From Terriglobales bacterium (GTDB lineage Bacteria > Acidobacteriota > Terriglobia > Terriglobales > Acidobacteriaceae), in assembly GCA_036392935.1 (NCBI GenBank), contig DASVWZ010000156.1, positions 1,433 through 65,432 on the forward strand: DNA of 64,000 nucleotides, given 5' to 3'. The notes below the pieces were generated by a model. It did no database searches. It saw only the letters and a program-made list of their open reading frames with translations, and had not been told where the DNA came from. Positions 5,801-54,453 of this stretch are shown piece after piece (the stretch's first letter is position 1; every line of letters begins with the position of its first letter). A program made the position numbers and the translations under genes.

Positions 5801-6059
5801 GACGCGGCGAATTCATGCGGGAGACCGGCTGAAGATGGATTTTATTGTGGAATCGTTCAATCTGCTGAACCGCGACAATAAACAGGTGACCGTAACGGAG
5901 AATGGACTGGAGAGCAGCAGTGTCTACTTCGAAAAAATGTTCACGCAACTCGGAATCAACTATTACCCTGGCCACTTCCAGGTGCCGTCGAATCCGTTGC
6001 AAATCACGAACGCGTTTCCGCCGCGGCAGGTGCAACTGGCGCTCAAGATGATTTTCTGA
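2898..6059 (+). CDS. TonB-dependent receptor with N-terminal carboxypeptidase-regulatory-like domain
   Basis: Signal peptide ILSAILITLLASAAEAQ, then GTVSDPTGARIADATVVVVNDATGFRYSMASDAEGRFAFELLPPGDY (CarboxypepD_reg-like). A plug-like region and a long beta-barrel follow, ending in a C-terminal Phe (LALKMIF). Start is uncertain: the ATG at 2724 would translate through intergenic repeats, so TTG at 2898 is proposed. Confidence 0.8.
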   Translation: MILSAILITLLASAAEAQDATGALRGTVSDPTGARIADATVVVVNDATGFRYSMASDAEGRFAFELLPPGDYTARAAARGMSAQETPKLHVEVGGETAIDFKLEVAGGKETVTVTGEPPVVDTQPAAVSSLIDERAIGGLPLDGRRYTDLALLTPGVTQDPRGLTMGSNGDLAFGGIRGFQTSYLVDGADNNNAFFAQATGRYRAPYQFSNEVVQEFRVSSNTYGAELGRAGGAVVNVVTKSGSNQLHGSGFYFLRDATFGATHPLLDFKPYSQQQQFGATVGGPIKRNKVFFFAGLDQHIFHDTSVVRFLDGSSEVVPQPGDPPLYPGDYEESDKGLVFAAAGKLNELAGNHPAQMLGNAGFFKLDAELSPHQTLSARLSTSRYWGLNNVFLDPGSPLTTFAISDNGQEQVATESGSISLTSALSWRMVSHLRAQFTRDLEQSFTNSTDPLSRINSIIDAFGQSSILPRQTREHRLHLTETLSLEEGRNSLKFGGDVLLTWIYNFFPSEFGGEYIFDPIKVDPFTFEPMEDGLELTPLRAYAHDVPKYYTQNFGTAVSHPDSNEYAAFAQDTVRVNRHLALSLGVRYDLQTYTTKGLIQNPLWPGSGKVPFNPDNFAPRVGMAYSVGEKKPLVVRAGYGWFYTRIPQIYNSTIATDNGYSSFNLFLDNSNYYDHQVFPQYPNALVDCPLMAASCALPANLAQFAQASISAFATNFKTPKVEQASVSLEREMAARLVVGVSYMYVHGIDLIRALDGNLPAPVNVEYPVYDAQGINFLGTFYNVQSFSTLQQTPSFTCPFPPCINPLARPIPQLGAVDVYQSAASSVYNGGTLSIHRQMTHGLYFRMAYTFAKAIDDGQDALVAGDPALVQNSYAPNAERGPSVTDQRQRLVVSWIAEPRPFHRGQDVLEKMFNDWKLASVATVGSGRPVTVTVAGDPNQDGNDDNDRLPGAGRNSFLGPDYATVDARLTRRIHAGDRLKMDFIVESFNLLNRDNKQVTVTENGLESSSVYFEKMFTQLGINYYPGHFQVPSNPLQITNAFPPRQVQLALKMIF

Positions 6060-6074
6060 GCGACGGGGCGGTAA

Positions 6075-6923
6075 TTATTTCGCAGCCGAAGGTTTTTCGG
6101 TTGTCTCTGATTTGGGTTCAGTCTTAGTTTCGGTTTCGGCATTTGGGCCGGGCTTGGTTGCGTCGTTGGGTGTTTGATCGTCAGCGGGTGAACCGGCTGA
6201 TTTGTCCTTTTCGAGATATTGGACGATGACGGAGATGCGGCGGTTCGAGGCGTCCTCGGGATTGTCTTTCACGCGCGGCAACTGATCGGCGTATCCACGT
6301 ACCTGGGAGACCTGATCCTGCCTGAGGCCGTCGTGCTGCATGAGGCGACGAGCGGCGTTGGCGCGGTCGGCGGAGAGTTCCCAGTTGCTGTATTCGTTTT
6401 TGCCGGAATAAGGCTTGGCGTCGGTGTGACCCTCGATGGACACACGATTGGGAAGCTTGCCCAGTTCCTGCGCCAGCAGTGTAAGCAATTCCTGACCGTT
6501 GGTATTGGGGCTGGGACTTCCGGATTCGAAAAACGTGCCCTTTTCGCTTTCGAGCAGCTCGATGCGTAGGCCTTCAGAGGTGACGGTCATTTCGATCTGC
6601 TTCTTGAGTTTCTCGAAATCATTCATCTGGCGGATGCGACTTTGCAATTCATCTTTCAAGTGACCCATGTCGTCTTTGGTGAGCGCAATATTTTCCCCTG
6701 AGCCGGTCTCGCCGTTACCCACCAGCTTCGATGTTCCGGATGGGTCTTTGAAATAACCGCCGACGGCTTCCTGGATTTGTTTGCTGGTGTTCAGCAGCCA
6801 AAGCACGATGAACAGCGCCATCATGGCGGTGACGAAGTCAGCGTAGGCCACCTTCCAGGCGCCGCCATGGTGGCCGCCGTGACCACCTTTCTTAATGATG
6901 ATTATGGGGCGGGTTTTGTCCAT
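6075..6923 (-). CDS. motB: flagellar motor stator protein MotB (OmpA-like C-terminal domain)
   Basis: N-terminus GGHGGHHGGAWKVAYADFVTAMMALFIVLWLL (plug/TM with conserved Asp). OmpA-like region HTDAKPY...NWELSADRANAARRLM. Starts 9 nt after motA. Confidence 0.85.
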   Translation of the reverse strand: MDKTRPIIIIKKGGHGGHHGGAWKVAYADFVTAMMALFIVLWLLNTSKQIQEAVGGYFKDPSGTSKLVGNGETGSGENIALTKDDMGHLKDELQSRIRQMNDFEKLKKQIEMTVTSEGLRIELLESEKGTFFESGSPSPNTNGQELLTLLAQELGKLPNRVSIEGHTDAKPYSGKNEYSNWELSADRANAARRLMQHDGLRQDQVSQVRGYADQLPRVKDNPEDASNRRISVIVQYLEKDKSAGSPADDQTPNDATKPGPNAETETKTEPKSETTEKPSAAK

Positions 6924-6932
6924 GGGGATTTT

Positions 6933-7823
6933 TCAGGCAGATGCGCCGGCAGCGGCGGCGGCGGGAGCGTCGCCACCTCCACCACGACAGGTACTTTCAA
7001 CTTCTTTAAACGATGGACGAACGTGCGAGGGGATGGCGCGGCGGCCGAACTCGACCGCAAGGACCGGCGCGCTTCCTTTGAGAAACGCCACCATGGTCAC
7101 GCGCATGACGTAGAGAAAGGCGCGTTCTTCATCGGCAATTTTTGCCATGTTGGCTGCCACGGGGCCGATCAATCCATAGCAGAGCAATATGCCAAGGAAG
7201 GTTCCGACCAGCGCGGCGGCAACTTTTTCTCCGATCTGCTCGGGCGGGCCACCGAGTGCGCCCATGGTGATGACCACGCCGAGAACTGCGGCGACGATGC
7301 CGAGGCCAGGAAGCGAGTCTGCCATGGTGGAGAGCGAGGATACAGGCTGGGTGGTGTGATGGTGGTGGACTTCCATATCGAGATCGAGGAGCTGATCGAG
7401 ATCGAAGGCTTCGACGCCGGTGATGGCCATGCGCATGGTGTCGCAGAAAAAATCTCGCAGGTGGTGGTTCTTGATGAACTCGGGATATTTTGAAAGCAAA
7501 GGGCTCTTGTCGGGAGCTTCGATGTCGGCTTCGAGCGACATCAGGCCTTCTCGGCGAGCTTTGTTGAGCAGGTCAAAGATCATCTTCAGAGTTTCGAGAT
7601 AGCGTTTCTTGGTGAATTTCGATCCGCCGAAGGTGCCGCCGATGCCGCCGGCGATCTGCTTGAGAATGTGGAGCGGGTTGGCGATCAAGACGGTGCCGAT
7701 GCCGGCACCACCGATGATGATCAGTTCGGCGGGCTGGATCAGGACTTTGACGTGCCCGTGCTCCATAAGAAAGCCGCCAAGCACGGCACCGAATACAACG
7801 ACAATTCCGATGATGGTAAACAT
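6933..7823 (-). CDS. motA: flagellar motor stator protein MotA
   Basis: MFTIIGIVVVFGAVLGGFLMEHG..QPAELIIIGGAGIG...SLPGLGIVAAVLGVV...VGTFLGILLCYG...AVEFGRR is collinear with E. coli MotA. The internal ATG at 7823 is used; the track start at 7964 would overlap the upstream gene. Confidence 0.9.
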   Translation of the reverse strand: MFTIIGIVVVFGAVLGGFLMEHGHVKVLIQPAELIIIGGAGIGTVLIANPLHILKQIAGGIGGTFGGSKFTKKRYLETLKMIFDLLNKARREGLMSLEADIEAPDKSPLLSKYPEFIKNHHLRDFFCDTMRMAITGVEAFDLDQLLDLDMEVHHHHTTQPVSSLSTMADSLPGLGIVAAVLGVVITMGALGGPPEQIGEKVAAALVGTFLGILLCYGLIGPVAANMAKIADEERAFLYVMRVTMVAFLKGSAPVLAVEFGRRAIPSHVRPSFKEVESTCRGGGGDAPAAAAAGASA

Positions 7824-7827
7824 CCAA

Positions 7828-8886
7828 TTAACCTTTTGACGCGTTGGCCGCAACGGAACGCAACGTGTCCGGGTTTGGCCCTGACAAAGACTGCGTCGTG
7901 CCGGGTGAAATGTCGGAAACCGCCCGAGCGAGCAGTGACTCGAGTGAGTCGGCCTCTTGCACAAGAGTGCGACCCATGCGTGTGGTAACGGCGTGCTGAT
8001 CGCCCCACCACTGCAACCGGGCGGAATTCATTAACCGGGAGATGCGGTCCCCAGCGACCTGCACTCCATGGGCGCTACAGTTGGAAAGAATAAGCAGGAA
8101 CTGGTTTTCTTCCCATCGACCGAGAAAATCTCCTGAATGTATGGTGTTGCGGATGCTTTCTGCGACGACGTGCAGCATGGTATCCCCTGCGGCATGTCCG
8201 TGGGCGGCGCGGAAGTCCGCCAACTTTTCCACTTGAATCAGGAGAATGGCGAACGGCAGGTGGTACTCGAGAAATGCGTTCATGCTCTCGCGCAGCTGCA
8301 AGCGGGTGTATCCGCGGTTGGGCACGCCGGTGGCTTCGTCGAGGCAGCCGTAGCGCGAAAGACGATGGTGGTGGCGTTCGCTGTCGATGACCGAAACGTG
8401 CTGGTCGAAACTTTGCGCGACGGCCACGGTTGCACCTAACCGGTCCACAATGGGAGCGCAATGCATGAGCACCCTGAGGGTATGGCCATGCTTGTGGGCC
8501 AATTCGATGGGAAATTCCCTCGGCTGGCCATCGCGAAGGGTTGCGGCGAATGGACATTCGCCGCCGCATGCCACACAAGCGTGCGAGTCACAAGGCTGGA
8601 GGAGGTTGCTGTGACAGGTCGAGCCGATGACTTCATAATGCTTGAACCCGGTCATCCGTTCCGCACCCCGGTTCCAGAGTGTGATTCGGCCTTCGCGGTC
8701 GAGTACATAGACTCCAGTCTGCAGACTTTCAAGAACGGCACGGTACAGTTCGTGTTCCGGTATGGGGAGCATTGGCGGGCAAAGTATGCTTGCTCCTCTA
8801 TCATCGGCGGAGAGATGGTGGACTTCAGGAAGCTGAACTTCGCCGAGGTGCAGGCCGCATCCGGGTTCGGCAAGCTCACACGGCAA
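7828..8886 (-). CDS. PAS sensor with Cys-rich insert fused to a degenerate (EENQF) GGDEF domain
   Basis: PAS core: LESLQTGVYVLDREGRITLWNRGAERMTGF. Cys cluster: C-x7-C-x4-C-x2-C-x3-C (aa 91-111). GGDEF-fold landmarks: DEATGVPNRGY, HGHAAGDTML. The A-site reads GRWEENQF instead of RxGG(D/E)EF, and the metal-binding DxD region reads IQVE. Stop is 4 nt before the motA ATG. The start could instead be the internal Met (MLPIPEHE). Confidence 0.8.
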   Translation of the reverse strand: MPCELAEPGCGLHLGEVQLPEVHHLSADDRGASILCPPMLPIPEHELYRAVLESLQTGVYVLDREGRITLWNRGAERMTGFKHYEVIGSTCHSNLLQPCDSHACVACGGECPFAATLRDGQPREFPIELAHKHGHTLRVLMHCAPIVDRLGATVAVAQSFDQHVSVIDSERHHHRLSRYGCLDEATGVPNRGYTRLQLRESMNAFLEYHLPFAILLIQVEKLADFRAAHGHAAGDTMLHVVAESIRNTIHSGDFLGRWEENQFLLILSNCSAHGVQVAGDRISRLMNSARLQWWGDQHAVTTRMGRTLVQEADSLESLLARAVSDISPGTTQSLSGPNPDTLRSVAANASKG

Positions 8887-8979
8887 AATGGGAAGGCCTC
8901 GAGGATCGGAAAGGCGCCGGTTACTTTGGTCAGTATTACGCGGATGGTTTGAACGCTAGAATGGGCGCACGGGGAGGAA

Positions 8980-9972
8980 ATGCAAAACAGCACTGAGGAC
9001 GGAAGTCCCGTTCGCCCATCGGGTGCGCAGACGCGTCCCAGCACCATTCTGGTGGCGGAAGATGACCGCCTGTTCCGTTACATCTTGCAGACGTGTCTCG
9101 AAAAGTGGGGACACAAGGTCGTTCTGGTGAATGATGGGCTGGCTGCGTGGGAGGCTCTGCAGAGCGATGATGCTCCCCAGATGGTGATTTTTGGCTGGAT
9201 GATGCCGGGGCTGGATGGGCTGGAACTCTGCCGGAGGATTCGACAGAGTAGCCCGAAGCCATATCGGTATCTGTTGCTGCTCTCGGCGAAGGACAGCAAA
9301 CAGGATGTAGTAGCTGCGCTGGATTCCGGAGCTGACGATTATCTGAGCAAACCCTTCGATCCAGATGAACTCCGCGCGCGAATTCGTTCCGGCGAACGAA
9401 TTTTGCAACTGCAGGAAGCGCTGATGCAAGCGCACGATGAACTGCAATTTGAAGCCGCGCATGACCGGTTGACCGAACTGTGGAACCGCGGCGCGGTGTT
9501 GGATGCGTTGGAGCGTGAGAGCCGGCGGGCTTTCCGGAGCAAGGAGCCGCTGTCGGTGGTGATGCTGGATCTGGATTCTTTTAAGAAGATCAACGATACG
9601 CACGGACATTTGATTGGGGATGCAGTGCTGACAGAAGTGGGGCGCCGCCTGATAGCGGCGTTTCGGGGATATGACTACATTGGGCGCTACGGAGGCGAGG
9701 AATTTCTTGCGGTGGTCCCGGGGTGCGGACGGGAAGATCTGATCGTTCTGGCGGAGCGGGCGCGGCAGTCGGTTTCGAGCGCTGCGATTTCGACGGCCGT
9801 TGGGGAGATTCCTGTAACGGTCAGTCTGGGAGTGGCAGCTGCGCAGGTAAAGGATATTGAGAAGGATCCGGAAAATCTGCTGAAGCTGGCGGATGCGGCG
9901 CTGTACCGGGCGAAATCGAAGGGCCGGAACCGGGTTGAGGTTGCAGCGGCGGCCAAAGCGGCCACGGTGTAA
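8980..9972 (+). CDS. response-regulator receiver (phospho-acceptor Asp replaced by Gly) fused to a GGEEF diguanylate cyclase
   Basis: Receiver residues: ILVAEDD, MVIFGWMMPGLDG, LLLLSAKD, DDYLSKPF. GGDEF domain: DRLTELWNRG, LDLDSFKKINDTHGHLIGD, RGYDYIGRYGGEEF (RxxD I-site plus intact GGEEF). GGGGAGGAA lies just upstream of the ATG. Confidence 0.85.
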   Translation: MQNSTEDGSPVRPSGAQTRPSTILVAEDDRLFRYILQTCLEKWGHKVVLVNDGLAAWEALQSDDAPQMVIFGWMMPGLDGLELCRRIRQSSPKPYRYLLLLSAKDSKQDVVAALDSGADDYLSKPFDPDELRARIRSGERILQLQEALMQAHDELQFEAAHDRLTELWNRGAVLDALERESRRAFRSKEPLSVVMLDLDSFKKINDTHGHLIGDAVLTEVGRRLIAAFRGYDYIGRYGGEEFLAVVPGCGREDLIVLAERARQSVSSAAISTAVGEIPVTVSLGVAAAQVKDIEKDPENLLKLADAALYRAKSKGRNRVEVAAAAKAATV

Positions 9973-10211: not shown

Positions 10212-11039
10212 CTAGTACGTCGAGATAGTGAAGTTGACTGTGATGCGAGCTTCGGTGTCGACCGGCCGGCCGGATTGCAGATGCGGTTTGAATCGCCATT
10301 GGCGGACGGCTTCGCGGGCAGCGGCGGAAAGAATGGCGGGTCCGCTCAGAACCTGTATTTCCTGAATGTCTCCGGTCTTGTCGATGAGCGCCTGCAAAAC
10401 CACGGCGCCCTGCACTTTCATCTGCTTGGCGAGCAAAGGATAGGTTGGTTCGACGGGACGGTCGAGCACCTCGACAGCATCGGGCGAGAGCTGCACGCGT
10501 TCCGTAGCTGTTGCTACGGGAGCGTCAGCCGTGGCGGGAGGCGGCGTTGCCGCGGGCAATGGAGCCACGCCATCCTGCATTTTGACGTTGACGGAGTTGG
10601 TTTTCGGATCGACTTCGTGGCGCTGATTTCCGGCGACGACTTCCACTTCCAGGGGCGGCAATACCGCGCGGCTGGTGGTTACGACCATCGGCGGAACAAC
10701 GGCTTTGGCCACTTCTTGCGGCGGGGAGGCTTTTTTCACGTGCACAGGCTCTTCGGGCGGGGCAAGCTGCGGTCCGAAGGGGATAGTTTTGGCGGCGGGT
10801 AGAGCGGCGCCGCTTGAGAACGCCGTGGGTTGCGGCGGCTCCGGCTCGGTTGTTTCTGAGGCAGCGGCGGCGCTGGGCGCCGGTGGCGACATCAGTCGCC
10901 AATCTTTTATGAGGACGAGGATGAGCGCGAGCGTCAGCACCAGAAGTGCCGTGATCATGCGGCGGCGCTGTTGATGTTCGAGAGCGCTTGGCTGGGGCGG
11001 CGTCAGCGCTTCAGGCGATTGGTTCTGCAAGGCTCCCAT
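10212..11039 (-). CDS. TonB-family energy transducer (N-terminal TM, Pro-rich linker, TonB_C domain)
   Basis: TM helix ITALLVLTLALILVLI, then a Pro/Ala-rich spacer. C-terminus YPLLAKQMKVQGAVVLQALIDKTGDIQEIQVLSGPAILSAAAREAVRQWRFKP. Confidence 0.8.
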   Translation of the reverse strand: MGALQNQSPEALTPPQPSALEHQQRRRMITALLVLTLALILVLIKDWRLMSPPAPSAAAASETTEPEPPQPTAFSSGAALPAAKTIPFGPQLAPPEEPVHVKKASPPQEVAKAVVPPMVVTTSRAVLPPLEVEVVAGNQRHEVDPKTNSVNVKMQDGVAPLPAATPPPATADAPVATATERVQLSPDAVEVLDRPVEPTYPLLAKQMKVQGAVVLQALIDKTGDIQEIQVLSGPAILSAAAREAVRQWRFKPHLQSGRPVDTEARITVNFTISTY

Positions 11040-11190
11040 AGAAAAAACGCACCCAGGAACGACCGTCCTGCGCTTAATAGTATGCCTTCAAACGAAGCAG
11101 AATGCCAGTGTTTCTACGCTGCTTTCGCGGGCTTCAGCGGTTGTGTAAAGTTGCGTTGTATCCGGCTGATTCTTAAATAGTTAGCCGAGT

Positions 11191-11206
11191 TGTGAGGCGC
11201 GTCACA
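11191..11206. promoter_or_regulatory. perfect CRP-consensus palindrome TGTGA-N6-TCACA
   Basis: TGTGAGGCGCGTCACA, 129 nt upstream of the Crp/Fnr-type gene start at 11335. It overlaps a second inverted repeat, CACAA-ACGC-TTGTG (11203..11216). Confidence 0.45.
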
Positions 11207-11334
11207 AACGCTTGTGCCTTCAATCACAGCCATGGCGAAGCCGCGAGCGCACACTAACTTCGTGATGCAGATCACAGGTGATTGTTTGAGCAGATGATCG
11301 CTTTCTGCCGAAAAAAGCATCACGGAGGTGGATT

Positions 11335-12057
11335 GTGATCTCACCCTATGGACTAGACATCGTCGAGAGCTGTTTAACCTGCAAAACCCGATCGGAACGG
11401 CTGTTTTGCGATCTGCCGGCGCCTGCGCTGCAGGCGTTTGAAGGCATTAAGTATGCGACCGCGTACCCGAAAGGCGCCGTACTGTTTGTGGAGGGGCAGG
11501 CGCCACGCGGAATTTTTGTGTTGTGCAAAGGAAGAGTAAAGCTTTCGATCTGCTCAACCGACGGAAAAACTTTGATCGTGAAGATCGCCGAACCTGGCGA
11601 GGTGCTGGGGTTGAGCGCGAGCGTTTCGGGAAAGCCGTATGAGTTGACGGCGGAGACGATCGATCCGTGCCAGGTGAACTTTGTGAAGCGCGAGGATTTT
11701 CTGCGCTTCCTGAGAGATCACGCCGATGCGTGTTTCCGCGTGGCGGAGCAGTTGAGCGAGAAATATAACGCCGCGTGCCATGAGGTTCGGTCGCTGGGGC
11801 TTTCGCACTCGGCGGGCGAGAAACTGGCGAAACTCCTGCTCGAGTGGAGCTCAAAAAATGGCGAGGCGACCAAAATGGAACCACGCCTGAAGCTGGCCCT
11901 TACACATGAGGAAATCGCGCAGATGATCGGCACATCGCGGGAGACAGTTACGCGTCTGTTCGCGGATTTGAAGAAGCGGCAAATTGTTCAGTCCAAGGGA
12001 TCTACGCTGATTATTCGGAATAAAACGGCGCTCAGAATGATCGCCACGAACAATTAG
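11335..12057 (+). CDS. Crp/Fnr-family transcription regulator with N-terminal C-x2-C-x8-C motif
   Basis: cNMP-binding fold (VLFVEGQAPRGIFVLCKGRVKLS, GEVLGL) plus C-terminal HTH (THEEIAQMIGTSRETVTRLFADLKK). N-terminus ESCLTCKTRSERLFCDLP. GTG start. Confidence 0.85.
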   Translation: MISPYGLDIVESCLTCKTRSERLFCDLPAPALQAFEGIKYATAYPKGAVLFVEGQAPRGIFVLCKGRVKLSICSTDGKTLIVKIAEPGEVLGLSASVSGKPYELTAETIDPCQVNFVKREDFLRFLRDHADACFRVAEQLSEKYNAACHEVRSLGLSHSAGEKLAKLLLEWSSKNGEATKMEPRLKLALTHEEIAQMIGTSRETVTRLFADLKKRQIVQSKGSTLIIRNKTALRMIATNN

Positions 12058-12137
12058 GAACCGAATGTACTTGAGTCACGTTCGCGCGTGATTCGAGTCA
12101 CTGCTCGCCCAGGTCGCATTGCATTAGGAGTAGGAGT

Positions 12138-12632
12138 ATGGAAAGTGCGACTCAAACCAGTTGCCTGCGTTGCATCGAACGGCCTGACCGGTTGTTTTGC
12201 CATTTGCCGGCCGAGGCGCTGAAAGCTTTCGATGCCCTCAAGTCCACTATCGAATGCACGAAGGGGGACGTGCTGTTTCGTGAAGGCTCTCCGTGCATAG
12301 GAGTTTTTGTCCTCTGCGAAGGCAGGGCGCGGCTGTCGGTGTGCTCGGAGTCGGGAAGCCGGCTGACGTTACGGATCGCGGCGCCGGGAGAGATGTTGGG
12401 CCTGAGCGCATGCCTGGCGGGAAGCCATTATGGGATGACCGCCGAACTCCTCGATAGCAGCCGTGTGGCCACGATGAAATACAACGACCTGATGACCTTT
12501 CTGCGCGAGCATGAGGACGCGTGCATGCAGGTGGTCAACCTGCTGAGCCAGGATCTGCATTATGCCTATGAGCGCGTCAGGGCAGTGGGGCTCGGCAAGC
12601 ATCGGCGGGCGCGATCGTTGACCGTGAATTGA
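12138..12632 (+). CDS. truncated Crp/Fnr paralogue (sensor domain only, no HTH)
   Basis: 164 aa, collinear with the first ~165 aa of the 240-aa neighbour. It shares the same motif, SCLRCIERPDRLFCHLP. The ORF stops before any HTH, and I found no HTH-like sequence in the other frames downstream. Confidence 0.7.
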   Translation: MESATQTSCLRCIERPDRLFCHLPAEALKAFDALKSTIECTKGDVLFREGSPCIGVFVLCEGRARLSVCSESGSRLTLRIAAPGEMLGLSACLAGSHYGMTAELLDSSRVATMKYNDLMTFLREHEDACMQVVNLLSQDLHYAYERVRAVGLGKHRRARSLTVN

Positions 12633-12759
12633 GCGGGAACCATTCTGCGGCACGGCTCATCATCAAATGAACCCAACCCATCCCTGGGTTGAAGTCGTGG
12701 TTCAACAAATTCCTCCCATCTTCCGACACACCTGCATGTGATATGCAGACATGGCGCCC

Positions 12760-12773
12760 GTGACTCATGTCAC
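12760..12773. promoter_or_regulatory. GTGA-N6-TCAC inverted repeat upstream of the multihaem cytochrome gene
   Basis: GTGACTCATGTCAC, 175 nt upstream of the ATG at 12948. A second palindrome, CTGCAT-GTGAT-ATGCAG, lies at 12732..12748. Confidence 0.35.
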
Positions 12774-12947
12774 CAAAACCAGTGAGTGGACTCATAGTCA
12801 TTTTTAACGCCGGACGAAAGAATGAAGATGCTGGCTGTGAAGTGTAACGAAACTCATCAGCGCGTGATGAGCATCTTGGCTGATGAAGATCGCAGCACGC
12901 GACGGCGCACAGACGCGGTCGGCAATCGCGGTGGGAAGGCAAAGGCT

Positions 12948-15101
12948 ATGAAACTCATCCCGGCATTAGCGCTCGGTCTCATACTAGCGGCGGTTCCTGC
13001 AAGCTCATCCTCCAAAGCTTCTACGAAAGCGGCGGGAAAAACTCCGGCGACTCCAGCCGCGGCGAATGAGACGTGTCTGGCCTGCCATGGCGACAAGACG
13101 ATGAAGTCGGAGTCCGGGAAGAGTCTGTTCGTCGATGCCGCGAAACATTCGGCCAGCGTACATGGCGAACTGGGATGCACGACCTGCCACGCGGACATAA
13201 AAGATTTTCCGCACCCCACGAAGGTAGCGAAGGTGACCTGCGCCACCTGTCACGACGACGAAGCGCACCAGGTGCCAACCAGCGTGCACGGATTGCTGGG
13301 TAAGACGTCATGCACGGCCTGCCACGGCGATCAGCACGAAATTCAATCGGCGGCGAAGGTCATTCCTGAGCGCTGCGCAACCTGCCATGAAGACGCGGTG
13401 AAGGAATATGCGGCGGGCGTGCATGCCGATGCGAGAAAAACGGGAAATACAGATGCGCCAAATTGCCTGTCCTGCCACGGCGGAGTGCACCAGATTCTGA
13501 GTGCGAGCGATGCCAAGTCACCGGTGAACCATCTGAATGTTCCAAAGACGTGCGCGACCTGCCACGACCAGAAACTGGTGATGGAAAAGACCGGCCACAG
13601 CACGCAGCCGTATGAGTCGTACGAGCAGAGCGTGCACGGGAAAGCGGTGGCATCGGGATCGGAAAAAGCCGCGGTTTGCACGGATTGTCACGGGGTGCAT
13701 GAGATTTTGTCGGCGGCGAATCCGAAATCGTCGATTTTCAAGTTCAATGTTCCAACCACGTGCGCGAAGTGCCACGGGCCAGTCGAACAGCAGTTTGTGG
13801 CCAGCATTCACGGGCAGGCGATCTCTCGTGGAAACTGGCAAGCCCCGGTTTGTACGGACTGCCACGGGATCCACACGATCAAGGCACCAAAGGATCCGAA
13901 TTCGTCGGTTTCACCTCAGAACGTGGCGCGGGTCACGTGCGCGAAGTGCCATGAGGGCGTGCAACTCTCGCAGGAATTTGGCGTGCCGACCGGCAGGGTG
14001 TCATCGTACATGGCGAGCTATCACGGGTTGGCGGCCTCGTTGGGATCACCCACGGTGGCCAATTGCGCCAGCTGCCACGGAGTGCACAACATCTTTCCGT
14101 CAAGTGATCCGCGGTCGACGATCAACCAGGCGAACCTGGTCCAGACGTGCGGACAATGCCACCCCGGAGTCACGGACAAGTTTGTGGCCGCGAAGGTGCA
14201 CGTGGATGCACCGCTGGCAGCCGATATGGGCAGCAAGGCTGTGAGCTGGGTGCGGCGAATTTACGTGCCGATGATCATTCTGGTGATCGGCGGTATGGTG
14301 CTGCACAACCTGATCATCTGGCGGTATAAAGCCGTCGCAAAGCGCAATTCGCATCCGCGAACCGTAACCCGCATGAGCGGCAACCAGCGGCTGCAGCACA
14401 TCCTGCTATTCACCAGCTTCATCGTGCTGGTGATCACGGGCTTTGCGCTGAAATATCCAACGTCATGGTTTTCCGGACTCTTGGGCCTCAGCGAGCACCT
14501 CCGCGGCATCATCCACCGTGTAGCAGGTGTCGTGCTGGTTGCGGTGAGCCTGTATCACCTCGCCTACGCGTTGCTGACACGGGATGGGCGCCGCTTGCTG
14601 CTTGACTTCCTGCCGAAGCCGAAAGACGCGACCGACGTAGTGGGCACCATGCTGCATTATCTCGGCCTGAAGCGCACGAAGCCTGAGTATGCGCGCTTTA
14701 CCTACGCCGAGAAAGCCGAGTACTGGGCGCTGGTGTGGGGCATGTTTGTAATGGCGGGCACTGGAATCATGCTGTGGGCGAAAGTGTTCTTCGGGAACCT
14801 GCTGCCACGGTGGTTCCTGGACATTGCGACCGCGATCCACTTCTACGAAGCTGTGCTTGCCACGCTGGCAATCGTGGTCTGGCACTTCTACCAGGTGTTC
14901 CTCGATCCTGACGCGTACCCGATGAATTGGGCCTGGTGGGACGGCAAGATGTCGGTTGAGCACTATCGCGAGGAGCACGGACTGGATGCGGCCACCCTGC
15001 TGGACGCGGCAAAGCGCGAAGCGAGCGAGCGGGCCTCAGCAGATACTGTGTCCGGCAACGCGAAGGACGAGGAAGCGGAAACCGTCGCCAGCTACAAATG
15101 A
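12948..15101 (+). CDS. 13-haem c-type cytochrome fused to a dihaem cytochrome b-like membrane domain (CbcL-like)
   Basis: Signal peptide MKLIPALALGLILAAVPASS. Thirteen CxxCH motifs counted (CLACH, CTTCH, CATCH x3, CTACH, CLSCH, CTDCH x2, CAKCH x2, CASCH, CGQCH). Then about 5 TM helices carrying conserved His (LQHILLF, IHRVAG...LYHLAY, AIHFYE...VWHFYQ), as in FdnI/HydC/PhsC-type cytochrome b. ATG at 12948 is preceded by GGGAAGG; the track start at 12822 adds a non-hydrophobic extension. Confidence 0.85.
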   Translation: MKLIPALALGLILAAVPASSSSKASTKAAGKTPATPAAANETCLACHGDKTMKSESGKSLFVDAAKHSASVHGELGCTTCHADIKDFPHPTKVAKVTCATCHDDEAHQVPTSVHGLLGKTSCTACHGDQHEIQSAAKVIPERCATCHEDAVKEYAAGVHADARKTGNTDAPNCLSCHGGVHQILSASDAKSPVNHLNVPKTCATCHDQKLVMEKTGHSTQPYESYEQSVHGKAVASGSEKAAVCTDCHGVHEILSAANPKSSIFKFNVPTTCAKCHGPVEQQFVASIHGQAISRGNWQAPVCTDCHGIHTIKAPKDPNSSVSPQNVARVTCAKCHEGVQLSQEFGVPTGRVSSYMASYHGLAASLGSPTVANCASCHGVHNIFPSSDPRSTINQANLVQTCGQCHPGVTDKFVAAKVHVDAPLAADMGSKAVSWVRRIYVPMIILVIGGMVLHNLIIWRYKAVAKRNSHPRTVTRMSGNQRLQHILLFTSFIVLVITGFALKYPTSWFSGLLGLSEHLRGIIHRVAGVVLVAVSLYHLAYALLTRDGRRLLLDFLPKPKDATDVVGTMLHYLGLKRTKPEYARFTYAEKAEYWALVWGMFVMAGTGIMLWAKVFFGNLLPRWFLDIATAIHFYEAVLATLAIVVWHFYQVFLDPDAYPMNWAWWDGKMSVEHYREEHGLDAATLLDAAKREASERASADTVSGNAKDEEAETVASYK

Positions 15102-15264
15102 GCTCTGGATGATTGGCAGAATGCGGCCAATGTCCCTGCAAAAGTTCTTGGATTTGGGGAAAACATGATAGAGAATCATATCTTCCTTCGTAATCAGTAG
15201 GGTGAGCGCGGGCAGACATGCTCGCGACGACAAAAATCCTTATGCGCAATCCGCGGGAGAACGA

Positions 15265-16803
15265 ATGAGCCCAGAAAGTCCAGTGCCCGAGTCGAACGTG
15301 GGCGTGGTGCGAACCACCCTAAGACGAATCATGCGGAACCCGATCAGCCTGGCAGGAATTGCGCTGGCCATCGTGGCGCTGGCGAATATTTTTTTCCTGT
15401 TCCTTATCGATCTGCTATCGGAGACCGCCAGCCCGTATGTCGGAATCCTTGGCTATATGGTCGCCCCGGGATTTCTGATTCTTGGGCTGCTGCTAATCTT
15501 AGCCGGACTGCTGTGGGAGAGAAAAAAGAAGGTCAAAGAGTCGCCGGATGCGCCGATTTATCCGCGGATCGATTTCAACGATCCAGGACAGCGCAGCGCG
15601 GCGGCATTTTTTTTGACCTTTATTGTGGTTTTCGTTCTGCTGAGCGCCGTAGGAAGCTATAAAGCATACGAATACACGGACTCCGTACAGTTTTGCGGTC
15701 AGTTGTGCCATTCGGTAATGAATCCGGAATTCACTGCGTACCAGCTTTCGCCGCATGCCCGCGTGGGGTGCGTAGAGTGCCACGTGGGGTCGGGTGCGTC
15801 GTGGTATGTGAAATCGAAGATGTCAGGCGTACGGCAGGTCTTCAAGACTGCGATTGGGACCTTTCCGCGGCCGATTCCAACACCGGTGCACGATCTGCGT
15901 CCGGCGGCGCAGACCTGCGAACAGTGCCATTGGCCGAAGCGTTTCTACGGGGCTCAGCTAAAAGTGTTCACGCATTATGCCAGCGACGAGAAAAACTCGC
16001 CACAGCAGATTCGCATGCTGCTCAAGACGGGTGGGGGCGATCCGAACACCGGCGCACCGGAGGGGATCCACTGGCACATGAATATCGCCAACGAGATCAC
16101 CTACATTTCGACTGACGACAAGCGCCAGGTGATTCCCTACATCCACGTGAAAGACATGCAAGGCAGGGTTACGGAATACATGACCAAAGATTCGCCACCA
16201 AGCAAGGAGCAACTGGCGAAGGGGACCCTGCGAAAGATGGATTGCATCGATTGCCACAACCGGCCGACGCATATCTACGTTCCTCCGGACCGGGCACTGG
16301 ATGAGTCATTGCTGGCGGGAAGGATCGATCCGAGTTTGCCGTTCATCAAGCAACAGGCATTGGCGACCCTGACCAAGAACTACGCAACCACCGATGCTGC
16401 GATGCAGGGGATCGCCACGGACCTGCACCAGTTCTACCAGAGCAAGTATCCGGATGTGGACCAGAACAAGCAAAAGGAACTGCACAATGCGATTGCTGAG
16501 GCGCAGCGCGTTTATTCGAGCACGACCTTTCCGGAGATGAAGCTGAACTGGCAGACCCATCCGAATAACATCGGCCACTTCTATTACGCCGGATGCTTCC
16601 GCTGCCACGACGGGCAGCACGTCAGCGCCGATGGGCGAGTGGTAAAGAAGGATTGCGACATTTGCCATACCATCCTGGAGCAGAATGAAGGCGCCACGCG
16701 GTTGATCGCGTCGCAGGGTGCAACGTTCAAACATCCTGTGGATATTGGCGACCTGTCGCAGGTGAGTTGCAGCGACTGCCACACCGGCGGAGTGAGCCCG
16801 TAG
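15265..16803 (+). CDS. membrane-anchored 7-haem NapC/NirT-like cytochrome (ImcH-like)
   Basis: Three N-terminal TM helices (ISLAGIALAIVALANIFFLFLI, ILGYMVAPGFLILGLLLILAGLL, AAFFLTFIVVFVLLSAV). One CX3CH motif (CGQLCH) plus six CxxCH (CVECH, CEQCH, CIDCH, CFRCH, CDICH, CSDCH). ATG at 15265 is preceded by GGGAGAA. Confidence 0.8.
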   Translation: MSPESPVPESNVGVVRTTLRRIMRNPISLAGIALAIVALANIFFLFLIDLLSETASPYVGILGYMVAPGFLILGLLLILAGLLWERKKKVKESPDAPIYPRIDFNDPGQRSAAAFFLTFIVVFVLLSAVGSYKAYEYTDSVQFCGQLCHSVMNPEFTAYQLSPHARVGCVECHVGSGASWYVKSKMSGVRQVFKTAIGTFPRPIPTPVHDLRPAAQTCEQCHWPKRFYGAQLKVFTHYASDEKNSPQQIRMLLKTGGGDPNTGAPEGIHWHMNIANEITYISTDDKRQVIPYIHVKDMQGRVTEYMTKDSPPSKEQLAKGTLRKMDCIDCHNRPTHIYVPPDRALDESLLAGRIDPSLPFIKQQALATLTKNYATTDAAMQGIATDLHQFYQSKYPDVDQNKQKELHNAIAEAQRVYSSTTFPEMKLNWQTHPNNIGHFYYAGCFRCHDGQHVSADGRVVKKDCDICHTILEQNEGATRLIASQGATFKHPVDIGDLSQVSCSDCHTGGVSP

Positions 16804-16848
16804 GCAGAAGTTAGAGTGCAGAAGTAACTGCCGAGGCCCACGGTACGA

Positions 16849-17367
16849 TCAGGCTCTCTGCTTGAAGCGATCCAGAAAAGCAAACAGCGCGACGGCGACC
16901 AAGGCATTAGCCAGCGCGGAGCCGAGTTCGTGCCACCAGGACCAGTGGAGGTCGAGGCGGACGAGTCCCCGGGCAATCAGGAAGTAAGTGAACTCGTGCA
17001 CCACGTAGAAGAAGAGCGTGACCAGAAAGCGGGAACCGGCATTTTCAACGTCGAGCTTGACGCCGAGCGATGATGCGCCGTATCCGACGACGGTGTTGGA
17101 GATGCCGTAAAGGCCAAGCGGGTAGTTGGTGAGCGAATCCTGAAGCAGGCCGATGGCTGCGCCAGTGAGCAGTCCAGTGATCTGGCTACGGCGAGCGAGG
17201 GCGAAAAAGACGACGACGAGGAATGGCAAGTCGACTATGTTAAAGAACGGCAACCATCGCGGGACGAATGCCTGAATGGCAAGCGCGAGCAGCGGGATGA
17301 TGATGGCCACGGGAAGGCTGAAGCGGTAGACCTCGATCTGCTCGTTCGATGTGTAGGTGATGGGCAC
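16849..17367 (-). CDS. mreD: rod shape-determining protein MreD
   Basis: 172-aa polytopic membrane protein immediately after mreC. Its GTG start overlaps the mreC stop by 1 nt. Confidence 0.8.
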   Translation of the reverse strand: MPITYTSNEQIEVYRFSLPVAIIIPLLALAIQAFVPRWLPFFNIVDLPFLVVVFFALARRSQITGLLTGAAIGLLQDSLTNYPLGLYGISNTVVGYGASSLGVKLDVENAGSRFLVTLFFYVVHEFTYFLIARGLVRLDLHWSWWHELGSALANALVAVALFAFLDRFKQRA

Positions 17368-18714: not shown

Positions 18715-19779
18715 TTATTCAATTGAAATCTTGCGGAGCAACTTGAAGTCGCTCAGCATTTTTCCGGTGCCGAGAACCACGCTGCACAAGGGATCGTCAG
18801 CGATGGAGACGGGCAGGCCGGTTTCTTCGCGGATGCGCTTATCGAGGTTCTTGAGCAGCGCGCCCCCGCCGGTGAGCACGATGCCGCGGTCGCTGATATC
18901 GGCGGAAAGTTCGGGCGGCGTACGTTCCAGGGCAACGCGAATGGCGTTCATGATCGTCGATACGCATTCGCTGAGGGCTTCGCGGATTTCGCTGTCATCA
19001 ACGGTGATGGTCTTGGGCACGCCCTCGATCAGGTTACGGCCTTTGATTTCCATGGTCAGCGGCTTATCGAGCGGGTAAGCGGAGCCGATGTCGATCTTGA
19101 TCTGCTCGGCGGTGCGTTCGCCGATGAGCAGGTTATATTTGCGCTTGAGGTAGTTCATGATGGCCTCATCCATCTGATTGCCGGCCATGCGTACGGAACG
19201 GGAGTAGACGATGCCGCTGAGAGAGATGACGGCGATGTCGGTGGTTCCGCCGCCGATGTCGACGACCATGTTGCCGCTGGGCTCGGTGATGGGCAAGCCG
19301 GCGCCGATGGCAGCGACCATTGCTTGTTCGACGAGATGCACCTCGCTGGCTTTGGCGCGGTAGGCGGAATCCATGACCGCACGCTTTTCCACTTGGGTGA
19401 TTTCGGAGGGCACGCCGATCACGATGCGAGGATGCACCAGCATCTTGCGGTTGTGCGCCTTCTGGATGAAGTAGTTCAGCATTTTCTCGGTGACTTTGAA
19501 GTCGGCGATGACGCCATCTTTCATGGGCTTAATGGCCACGATGTTGCCGGGAGTGCGGCCGAGCATTTCTTTCGCTTCTTTGCCGACAGCCTCGACTTCA
19601 CCGGTATTTTTGTTGATGGCCACGATGGAAGGCTCGTTCACGACGATGCCCTTGCCGCGCGCGTAGACGAGCGTGTTCGCGGTGCCCAGATCGATGGCGA
19701 GGTCGCTCGAGAAGACGCTGAAGAGCGACCTGACATTGTGCAGGTGGTTGCCGTTGGAATGAAATCCGTTAGATGACAT
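18715..19779 (-). CDS. mreB: rod shape-determining actin homologue MreB
   Basis: [38 protein letters not shown]. Full-length collinearity with MreB. Confidence 0.95.
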
Positions 19780-36463: not shown

Positions 36464-36479
36464 TGTGACCTCGGTCACT
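36464..36479. promoter_or_regulatory. TGTGA-N6-TCAC(T) CRP-type inverted repeat
   Basis: TGTGACCTCGGTCACT in the 207-nt spacer between the permease gene and lolD. Same GTGAC-N4-GTCAC core as 12760..12773. Confidence 0.3.
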
Positions 36480-54311: not shown

Positions 54312-54453
54312 CTCATCTCTCCTTTTCTGATTTGACTTCTGCCTTCTCACTTCTAACTTCCGCCTTGCCACTTCCCATTCCTGCACACCCAAACATCGCG
54401 CCCGTGATCTACGTCACAGCCAGGCGACGAGACGAACCCGCACCATAACTCCG

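Follow-up and report, generated by a model that had tools for sequence, protein, structure and literature searches.

The 64,000-nucleotide stretch of Terriglobales DNA described here (contig DASVWZ010000156.1; hereafter, the window) carries two multihaem cytochrome genes side by side on the + strand, preceded by two genes of the Crp/Fnr regulator family. The first cytochrome gene, gene A, encodes a multihaem c-type domain fused to a dihaem b-type membrane domain, an architecture known from CbcL of Geobacter sulfurreducens, and the second, gene B, encodes a heptahaem cytochrome resembling ImcH of the same organism. The two regulators, Crp1 and Crp2, are a full-length protein and a shorter paralogue that has no helix-turn-helix (HTH) domain, and boxes of the CRP type lie in the spacers in front of crp1, crp2 and gene A (Table 1). 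We found that these four genes form a conserved Terriglobales unit with conserved Crp-type boxes. A six-frame scan of the whole window for open reading frames (ORFs) with at least two CxxCH motifs returned genes A and B as the sole hits. A preliminary description of this DNA, made from its letters, had given gene A a signal peptide, 13 CxxCH motifs and a His-bearing b-type domain with five transmembrane (TM) helices, and had given gene B, after a gap of 163 nt, three TM helices, one CX3CH and six CxxCH; motif, hydropathy and Pfam analyses agree with it on both proteins. It was likewise right about the full-length and truncated Crp/Fnr paralogues with a C-x2-C-x8-C motif, as Pfam matches and Cys positions show, and about an acidobacterial host, Terriglobales homologues being found throughout the best matches. 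Close homologues of genes A and B all come from metagenome-assembled genomes (MAGs) of Terriglobales or Acidobacteriia, and the DNA sequencing runs that hold the locus are soil metagenomes.

Table 1. Coordinates of the module, its parts and its divergent neighbour in the window
Feature	Position	Strand	Evidence
Gene A, 717 aa: 13-haem c domain and 5-TM FdnI/HydC-type dihaem b	12948..15101	+	Motif scan, Pfam, Foldseek
45-residue dihaem insertion in gene A, residues 99-143, two extra CxxCH	13242..13376	+	Orthologue alignment
Two tandem tetrahaem modules in gene A, residues 151-276 and 281-405	13398..14162	+	Self-alignment
Membrane domain of gene A: TM0 (~434-460) and four-helix FdnI-type core	14247..14903	+	Invariant His, alignment, Foldseek
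Gene B, 512 aa: heptahaem inner-membrane cytochrome, 3 TM	15265..16803	+	Motifs, Pfam, alignment to ImcH
crp1: full-length Crp/Fnr-family regulator, 240 aa	11335..12057	+	Pfam PF00027, PF13545, PF00325
crp2: HTH-less Crp/Fnr paralogue, 164 aa, sensor and dimerisation part	12138..12632	+	Pfam PF00027 only
Three CRP-type boxes in the tonB-like/crp1 spacer	11191..11276		Pattern scan
Crp-type box GTGATTCGAGTCAC, centre 43.5 nt 5' of the crp2 ATG	12088..12101		Pattern scan
Crp-type box GTGACTCATGTCAC 5' of gene A	12760..12773		Pattern scan
TonB C-terminal-domain protein, 275 aa, proline-rich	10212..11039	-	Pfam PF03544

The product of gene A begins with a hydrophobic signal sequence, which is followed by 13 CxxCH motifs at residues 43, 77, 98, 122, 143, 173, 202, 244, 272, 302, 331, 373 and 401 (spacing 34, 21, 24, 21, 30, 29, 42, 28, 30, 29, 42 and 28). 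The protein has 26 Cys in total, with no CX3CH and no CxxCK (CxxCK is also absent from gene B), and its haem domain has 14 invariant His outside the motifs, enough for 13 bis-His haems. Hydropathy places five hydrophobic helices at about residues 434-652, and an AlphaFold2 model places five at 426-468, 478-502, 516-543, 586-615 and 621-652; the model is poor overall (mean pLDDT 46.6), with values of 60-79 for the membrane part alone. Beyond the last helix is a hydrophilic tail of 66 residues, which by topology should be cytoplasmic, and no sixth TM helix is present.

The membrane domain is most similar to the cytochrome b subunit of formate dehydrogenase. Residues 479-652 match Pfam PF01292 (Ni_hydr_CYTB; E = 1.2e-12), and the domain also matches TIGR01583 and formate dehydrogenase gamma models, its NCBIfam FdnI match being far below the curated cut-off. 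Its best solved relative, by sequence and by fold, is Escherichia coli FdnI: 1KQF chain C is the closest PDB sequence (E = 3e-4), and 1kqf_C was the top Foldseek hit of the gene A model and the sole one with probability 1.0, a result that has the weak model behind it. In a HMMER alignment, FdnI H18, H57, H155 and H169 pair with gene A H484, H523, H631 and H646, and these four gene A residues are invariant in 70 of 70 sequences. We take the four FdnI residues to be the ligands of its two b haems (Jormakka et al. 2002). The two proteins differ in their setting: FdnI is a separate subunit of formate dehydrogenase-N, reducing menaquinone with electrons supplied by an Fe-S subunit, whereas in gene A the domain is joined to a multihaem c wire and preceded by one more TM helix.

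Much of the haem domain is built from repeats. The two tandem tetrahaem modules are 40% identical over 124 residues (self-alignment score 248, against 33 +/- 6 for shuffled sequences), with an internal haem spacing of 30, 29, 42 and 28 in each, and the same module is repeated two to four times in family members with 11, 15 and 19 haems. Closer to the N-terminus, the 45-residue insertion repeats in tandem the dihaem unit next to it (residues 77-121 aligned with 122-166; score 92, against 26 +/- 5.7 for shuffles), and more than 80% of 69 orthologues lack it. Among 70 Terriglobales sequences, 63 have 11 CxxCH motifs and six have 13, namely the window, L002, L021, L022, L040 and L045, the last being Ca. 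Sulfotelmatobacter SbA1 (loci and contigs are cited by their number in our set). Gene A therefore has 13 haems because of a 45-residue dihaem duplication in the usual 11-haem form. We rejected an alternative gene A start at 12822, as orthologues are about 700-717 residues long and start at the downstream ATG.

Two further observations concern this domain. The sole solved structure related to it is a recent entry, PDB 28pb chain A ('Cytochrome c', 278 aa), which matches gene A residues 41-181 (13068-13490; E = 1.2e-11) and whose motif spacing of 33, 23, 22, 24 and 29 is similar to that of the first six haem motifs of gene A. In addition, five of six relatives (L002 at 4706-7709, L021, L022, L040, L045, L074) have a split b-c cytochrome just upstream of the fused gene, consisting of a 703-residue cytochrome with 19 CxxCH followed by a separate 315-residue PF01292 cytochrome b. 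Those five carriers have 13-haem fusions, L074 not being among the 13-haem sequences, and the window itself is without the extra split pair.

We next compared gene A with CbcL. The published description of CbcL (GSU0274; Zacharoff 2016) gives nine haems with a spacing of 23, 25, 23, 24, 29, 28, 43 and 28, and six TM helices. The two proteins share a signal peptide, a periplasmic bis-His multihaem domain, a linking TM helix and an FdnI-type four-helix dihaem b domain, in the same order, and the spacing of their C-terminal tetrahaem parts is close (30, 29, 42 and 28 in gene A; 29, 28, 43 and 28 in CbcL), whereas gene A has 13 haems to the nine of CbcL. The CbcL/MtoC/MtrH family as a whole ranges from 3 to 23 haems, mostly with six TM helices, four members having five and one having four (Zhong & Shi 2018); the list of CbcL homologues from that year has two acidobacterial entries, with 9 and 19 haems, and does not include the Terriglobales type. 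An exhaustive HMMER search of 1.84 billion representative sequences returned 6540 relatives of gene A, 1209 of them at E <= 1e-30, and we read the haem spacing in the best 150, which are representatives of 50% clusters. Eleven haems are carried by 61 of these 150. Named relatives come from Eisenbacteria and Methylomirabilis oxyfera and are annotated merely as 'cytochrome b/b6 domain-containing'. Gene A is thus a member of the broad CbcL/MtoC/MtrH class that belongs to a separate and very large subfamily with five TM helices and 11 or 13 haems, set apart from GSU0274 by the published description of that protein. The preliminary description was right about the multihaem-c/FdnI-type-b architecture, but gene A is not the haem-expanded Geobacter CbcL that it had proposed; the 13 haems are the product of an insertion in a small clade of this usually 11-haem subfamily.

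Gene B has TM segments at about residues 22-55, 57-86 and 108-135 by hydropathy, a CX3CH motif (CGQLCH) at residue 144 and six CxxCH motifs at 169, 218, 327, 444, 464 and 502. It matches Pfam PF03264 (NapC/NirT; E = 4e-12), and NrfH is its only solved relative (E = 1.8e-6); in NCBIfam it matches NrfH, NapC and TorC at scores well short of the curated thresholds. A CX3CH next to the third TM helix followed by five to nine CxxCH, six of them in the Geobacter type, is the published criterion of the ImcH family. ImcH itself (GSU3259) has 507 residues, motifs at 132, 156, 205, 311, 428, 448 and 486, and TM helices at 13-35, 45-67 and 100-122 (Zhong & Shi Table S3). Gene B, with 512 residues, shares with it the three N-terminal TM helices, the NapC/NirT-like region and the CX3CH placed ahead of six CxxCH, and its motif spacing (25, 49, 109, 117, 20 and 38) is within three residues of that of GSU3259 (24, 49, 106, 117, 20 and 38).

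A Geobacter-type ImcH reference was obtained by matching the GSU3259 primer of Levar et al. 2014, as an exact 20-mer, to metagenome contigs. The contig so found, L089, encodes a 507-residue Geobacter-type ImcH with E127, H137, K173, Q179 and Y188, exactly the positions at which Pimenta et al. place these residues in G. sulfurreducens ImcH. Gene B is 46% identical to this protein end to end over 497 residues (E = 8e-174, nine gaps); reported identities of ImcH homologues outside the Geobacter clade are 31.5-49% (PMC6295460). The haem-1 His (H149 = H137), the distal Gln (Q191 = Q179) and the Lys (K185 = K173) are kept in gene B, and the motif residues, K185 and Q191 are invariant in 82 of 82 orthologues. 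Judged by this alignment, gene B is a true ImcH-family member, in line with the likeness to ImcH that the preliminary description had drawn. It differs from GSU3259 in lying directly 3' of a b-c fusion gene and behind Crp-type genes, GSU3259 being monocistronic, and in having a soil acidobacterium as its host. The published acidobacterial ImcH homologues (Koribacter Acid345_2712 and others) gave no exact match of motif coordinates among the gene B hits. The AlphaFold2 model of gene B is poor (mean pLDDT 40), and a start at 15202 was rejected because orthologues have 511-513 residues from the downstream ATG. Terriglobales-like imcH genes 61-67% identical to gene B also occur in a MAG labelled Chlamydiota (L057) and in two labelled Ca. 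Binatia (L068, L069), where they most likely reflect binning contamination rather than gene transfer.

To place the locus among its relatives, we scanned one genome per species for relatives of gene B. At least 586 species-level genomes carry one, and the best 80 are all Terriglobales MAGs. Our synteny sample consists of the best 80 of these at least 586 genomes and L002, and counts refer to loci with enough flanking sequence (n = 76; n = 75 for the crp genes). In 69 of 76 loci gene B directly follows a gene A orthologue of the same orientation (median gap about 160 nt); with a distance of up to 8 kb allowed, the count rises to 74, and two loci have gene B with no gene A in that range. In five loci (L008, L020, L033, L007 and L023) the pair is parted by a 3.4-kb insert encoding a Rieske protein, a cytochrome b and a nine-haem cytochrome. 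The crp1 and crp2 genes precede the cytochrome pair in 29 of 75 loci, and in several others a less closely related Crp gene (54-61% identical) is found close by in the opposite orientation. None of the conserved neighbours in the 76 loci encodes a catalytic subunit. The adjacency of cbcL-type and imcH-type genes is thus not peculiar to this genome; the survey shows it to be the rule in Terriglobales. The preliminary description was correct that the two genes are at separate loci in G. sulfurreducens, where they are far apart and imcH is monocistronic (Levar et al. 2014). Published tables also contain adjacent imcH/cbcL locus tags in several Syntrophus/Desulfuromonadales MAGs (for example, A2X92_08560/08565, A2X96_02395/02390 and A2X79_01185/01190), and adjacency of a b-c fusion and ImcH is therefore not unique to Acidobacteria.

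Crp1 consists of cNMP_binding, HTH_Crp_2 and Crp domains and is 82-90% identical in 29 species, the cytochromes being less conserved (54-72%). It has an N-terminal C13-x2-C16-x8-C25 motif and five further invariant Cys, and all eight Cys are kept in 28-29 of 29 orthologues. Its closest solved relatives are CRP/CAP (E = 5e-15 to about 1e-15), FNR-type structures being much weaker matches, and NCBIfam Fnr and FnrL scores are far below the cut-offs. The recognition helix reads SRETVTR, which we take to be the RE--R pattern of E. coli CRP. In its fold, its recognition helix and its TGTGA-N6-TCACA consensus boxes, Crp1 resembles CRP (E. coli CAP). C112 of Crp1 presumably corresponds to FNR Cys122, and the N-terminal Cys triad together with C112 appears to us reminiscent of the FNR [4Fe-4S] ligands; the triad is spaced C-x2-C-x5-C in FNR and C-x2-C-x8-C in Crp1, however, and no TTGAT-N4-ATCAA box is found near the module. 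Crp1 is thus a regulator nearer to CRP than to FNR in sequence, recognition helix and DNA box. That it is a metal or Fe-S redox sensor is plausible but unproven.

Crp2 is 49% identical to Crp1 and repeats its N-terminal motif (C9-x2-C12-x8-C21). It has the same truncated length in 30 species, at 54-68% identity, and C9, C12, C21, C60 and C129 are invariant in 31 of 31 sequences; Crp1 C112 has no counterpart in it. Because the truncated length is kept in 30 species, we rejected the idea of a decaying gene, and on this pattern of conservation Crp2 is a functional paralogue without an HTH. A conserved partner of this kind sets Crp1 apart from both CRP and FNR, and it would be unusual for a CRP-like regulator to have a partner that acts as a sensor only.

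The boxes agree with a CRP-type regulator. In the spacer 5' of crp1, the box at 11191-11206 (TGTGAGGCGCGTCACA) is a perfect TGTGA-N6-TCACA, that at 11213-11228 has one mismatch, and that at 11261-11276 is a near-match containing GTGATGCAGATCAC. The window has five copies of TGTGA-N6-TCACA with at most one mismatch (1.3 expected) and five of the core pattern GTGAY-N4-RTCAC (0.16 expected from shuffles), three of the latter five lying in the spacers 5' of crp1, crp2 and gene A. Across the relatives, the crp1-crp2 spacer has a box in 29 of 29 loci, its centre always 40.5-45.5 nt before the crp2 start, and the crp2-gene A spacer has one in all 29 loci that carry crp1 and crp2. Between genes A and B there is no box and no + strand terminator-like site, and terminator-like sites in general are not above the shuffle level. 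An FNR-type operator was rejected, as no FNR box (TTGAT-N4-ATCAA) occurs near the module; the whole window has four matches with at most one mismatch, against 1.65 expected. An inverted-repeat finder run on the spacers returned nothing, the boxes being shorter than its seed allows. The preliminary description had suggested that this may be a single, redox-regulated module. A conserved four-gene unit with Crp-type boxes is what we found; because regulator and boxes are of the CRP type and an FNR box is lacking, the case for redox control comes down to the invariant Cys.

GTGAY-N4-RTCAC is also very frequent elsewhere in Terriglobales, with 289 copies in 1.33 Mb of loci L004-L083, against an expectation of about 0.16 per 64 kb. 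With so many boxes outside the module, Crp1 may act globally and control a large regulon, not just this locus. Two further boxes in the window have no obvious link to the module: one (36465-36478) is within an ABC-transporter operon, between genes for an FtsX-type permease and an ABC ATPase, and the other (54404-54417) is downstream of an RNase E/G gene.

Some relatives encode an outer-membrane conduit beside the cytochrome pair. The gene directly 5' of the gene A orthologue encodes an MtrB/PioB porin (PF11854, E = 1e-77) in L008, L020 and L033, and porins of this type are common in Terriglobales. L085 gives a fuller view of the L033 contig; the upstream side of L008 and L020 falls outside the loci we fetched, and a decahaem MtrA-like gene before the porin is accordingly seen in one relative. 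The L085 cluster reads: cytochrome c, a 334-residue decahaem MtrA-like protein (exactly 10 CxxCH), MtrB/PioB porin, cytochrome c, 11-haem b-c fusion, cytochrome c, Rieske protein, cytochrome b, nine-haem cytochrome and ImcH-like protein. Next comes a Crp gene with the Cys motif, in reverse orientation. The cluster has a perfect TGTGA-N6-TCACA on its upstream side, and no MtrC-type outer cytochrome is found beside the decahaem protein and porin. Because three relatives place the pair beside an MtrB/PioB porin, we link the pair to outer-membrane transport. L084 has the same decahaem protein and porin, and there a 208-residue NapC/NirT (CymA-like) protein comes next, in the place of genes A and B; since the conduit is paired there with a CymA-like protein instead, the quinone-pool modules are interchangeable. 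In acid tropical soils, the MtrA/B/C gene pools are reportedly dominated by Acidobacteriia (PMC7980381).

With A and B orthologues beside the porin in L085, L008 and L020, and with the decahaem gene and monohaem cytochromes that L085 adds, these clusters resemble the mtoA-mtoB-mtoD-mtoC/cymA clusters of Fe(II) oxidisers and the mtrAB-cymA/mtrH clusters of Rhodoferax. They differ in that the acidobacterial clusters add ImcH and the Rieske/cytochrome b/nine-haem complex, and the window differs in having no such genes. The added complex, composed of a Rieske protein, a bc1/b6f-type cytochrome b and a 420-residue nine-haem cytochrome (L085 15358-18144; L008 5106-7892), adjoins the A and B genes in two more loci, L004 and L006, on the opposite strand. 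It is a third kind of quinol oxidase in the cluster.

Based on these observations, we lean towards the view that the four-gene Terriglobales module is the inner-membrane end of an electron route joining the quinone pool to cytochromes of the periplasm or outer membrane. In Geobacter, ImcH, CbcL and CbcBA are potential-specific quinol oxidases (PMC13591261, PMC5322298): ImcH, an inner-membrane heptahaem protein that oxidises menaquinol electroneutrally on the periplasmic face, is used for acceptors above about -100 mV, and CbcL serves acceptors of -100 to -210 mV. By analogy, gene B would probably oxidise menaquinol at an NrfH-like site beside haem 1 on the periplasmic face and pass the electrons along its seven haems to periplasmic carriers. 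Electrons entering gene A would move from a quinol site in the FdnI-type dihaem-b bundle across the membrane to the 13-haem periplasmic wire. The two proteins would be alternative, energetically different exits, divided by acceptor potential as ImcH and CbcL are in Geobacter, and their genes may be transcribed together. Crp1 would bind the TGTGA-N6-TCACA boxes before crp1, crp2 and gene A, and the HTH-less Crp2 would probably modulate Crp1, for example as a sensor-only partner. Under oxygen limitation, the module would most likely serve to respire acceptors outside the cell or in the periplasm (Fe(III), Mn(IV), humics), with an outer-membrane conduit encoded elsewhere in the source genome.

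A number of results weigh against this reading or against parts of it. For gene A, the five TM helices and the 66-residue tail in place of a sixth helix depart from CbcL, and the haem spacing of Geobacter CbcL is seen in none of the best 150 of the 6540 relatives. For gene B, of the four ImcH residues that have been proposed to take part in quinol chemistry in Geobacter, two are changed, D139 replacing E127 (Asp in 59 of 82 orthologues) and F200 replacing Y188 (Phe in 36 of 82). As to control and expression, the Cys spacing is not FNR-type and the box is CRP-type, a sigma-70 promoter scan of positions 10900-17000 returned 0 sites, and no RNA sequencing run holds the locus. As to the onward path, the 64-kb window has no gene for a conduit, a periplasmic cytochrome or a monohaem cytochrome, the six-frame CxxCH scan bearing out the earlier remark that no porin-cytochrome conduit is visible in it, and a porin accompanies the cytochrome pair in only 3 of 80 relatives. 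Finally, FdnI-type domains are naturally quinone reductases, and the clusters of the relatives are no less like the mtoAB-mtoD-mtoC clusters of Fe(II) oxidisers than like those of reducers, so that electron export, as proposed in the preliminary description, is not established.

The last point raises the alternative that the module works inward, electrons from Fe(II), reduced humics or a periplasmic donor passing through a PioAB/MtoAB-type conduit to gene A, which would reduce quinone as a redox loop, as proposed for MtoC, with gene B as a second or reverse link. L085 speaks for this direction: it has a decahaem protein and an MtrB/PioB porin without an MtrC-type protein, three monohaem class-I cytochromes, the Rieske/cytochrome b genes and the b-c fusion, which is the layout of mtoA-mtoB-mtoD-mtoC in Gallionella and Dechloromonas (PMC6295460). 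That FdnI reduces menaquinone in formate dehydrogenase-N, and that Methylomirabilis oxyfera has a gene A relative, also fit. Against it, ImcH has so far been implicated in quinol oxidation alone (PMC6295460), cultured Acidobacteriaceae are reported as Fe(III) reducers and not as Fe(II) oxidisers (PMC6295460, PMC7980381), the module in the window has neither conduit nor monohaem cytochrome, and an mto-like context occurs in only 3 of 80 loci. We therefore regard inward flow as unlikely, if worth keeping in view.

Quite improbable, in our judgement, is a role unrelated to extracellular acceptors, in which genes A and B would be FdnI-type and NapC/NrfH-type anchors for a periplasmic reductase of a soluble substrate (nitrite, hydroxylamine, sulfite or tetrathionate) encoded elsewhere. 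Gene B is similar to NrfH, NapC and TorC; the names given in sources are 'nitrate/TMAO reductase-like tetraheme cytochrome c subunit' and 'cytochrome b subunit of formate dehydrogenase'; and the carriers include several MAGs of Ca. Sulfotelmatobacter, a group that has dsr genes (PMC6018796). Yet the NCBIfam matches to NrfH, NapC, TorC and FdnI are all far under their cut-offs (one of them at 48 bits where the cut-off is 134), and gene B aligns with ImcH from end to end, including the three TM helices, the CX3CH and the Gln ligand. The lack of a conserved catalytic-subunit neighbour in 76 loci and of CxxCK in either protein likewise tells against anchors of this kind, and the only recurring accessory genes encode cytochromes, the Rieske/cytochrome b complex and the MtrAB-type conduit. 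Least probable of the three, to our mind, is that A and B are subunits of one complex, such as a 20-haem supercomplex with quinone sites on opposite faces (a Q-loop). A single complex would explain why the genes are almost never separated, and it fits their constant order and strand, their adjacency in 69 of 76 species at a median gap of about 160 nt and the absence of any box or + strand terminator-like site between them. The 3.4-kb insert that parts them in five loci and the two loci with B and no A within 8 kb argue otherwise, as does Geobacter, in which ImcH and CbcL are independent and genetically separable (PMC4251993, PMC5322298).

Several elements of this picture are already in the literature. 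ImcH homologues in Acidobacteria have been published (Levar 2014; 19 in Zhong & Shi 2018; PMC4251993, PMC6295460), as have variable haem numbers in CbcL relatives, cytochrome genes beside imcH and acidobacterial Mtr genes. As the protein families and their presence in Acidobacteria were known, the advance is incremental. In the literature searched we did not find the near-universal pairing of b-c fusion and ImcH in Terriglobales, the Crp1/Crp2 pair with conserved CRP-type operators, a definition of the subfamily with five TM helices and 11 or 13 haems, or the occasional merger of the pair with an MtrAB-type cluster. Among genomic markers of extracellular electron transfer, quinol oxidases of the ImcH and CbcL types have been described as the most reliable (bioRxiv 10.1101/2025.11.06.686851). 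The conserved pair and its regulators offer a testable handle on iron and humic respiration by abundant acidobacteria that are mostly regarded as 'aerobic heterotrophs'. They also correct the earlier interpretation of one genome: Ca. Sulfotelmatobacter SbA1 was reported to lack iron-metabolism genes (Hausmann et al. 2018; PMC6018796), and it carries the module (L045).

A broader proposition, which we put forward tentatively and consider rather doubtful as a whole, is that Terriglobales share a self-regulated four-gene 'electron gateway' made up of a Cys-rich CRP-type regulator, a sensor-only paralogue, an 11- or 13-haem fusion and ImcH, with two exits from the quinone pool in one operon. Such a gateway could be the basis of a widespread but overlooked Fe(III) or humic respiration, or of electron uptake from Fe(II) or humics, in acid soils and peat, and Crp2 would be a new type of redox-sensing partner to an activator resembling CRP. 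If this were true, two exits that are scattered and separately regulated in Geobacter would be joined in one operon. Terriglobales are among the most abundant soil bacteria.

The gene for a TonB C-terminal-domain protein is divergent from crp1, and the two share the box-rich spacer. The same gene occurs in the same place and orientation in L002, L010, L011, L015, L016, L019, L032 and L078. Because this arrangement and the shared box spacer recur in at least eight other species, the gene may be part of the same regulon; it is a conserved neighbour whose membership of the module or regulon is uncertain. Rfam and tRNA scans of the window returned nothing. Its other genes near the module include MreD and MreC, with the ORF at 18715..19779 occupying the MreB position (an assignment made by position only). 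Directly 5' of the module, at 6075-9972, are MotA/MotB-like stator genes and genes for two GGDEF proteins, one with a PAS domain and one with a response-regulator domain. This cyclic di-GMP signalling neighbourhood may be linked to the module or may stand apart from it; the independent assembly L001 carries the same stator and GGDEF genes.

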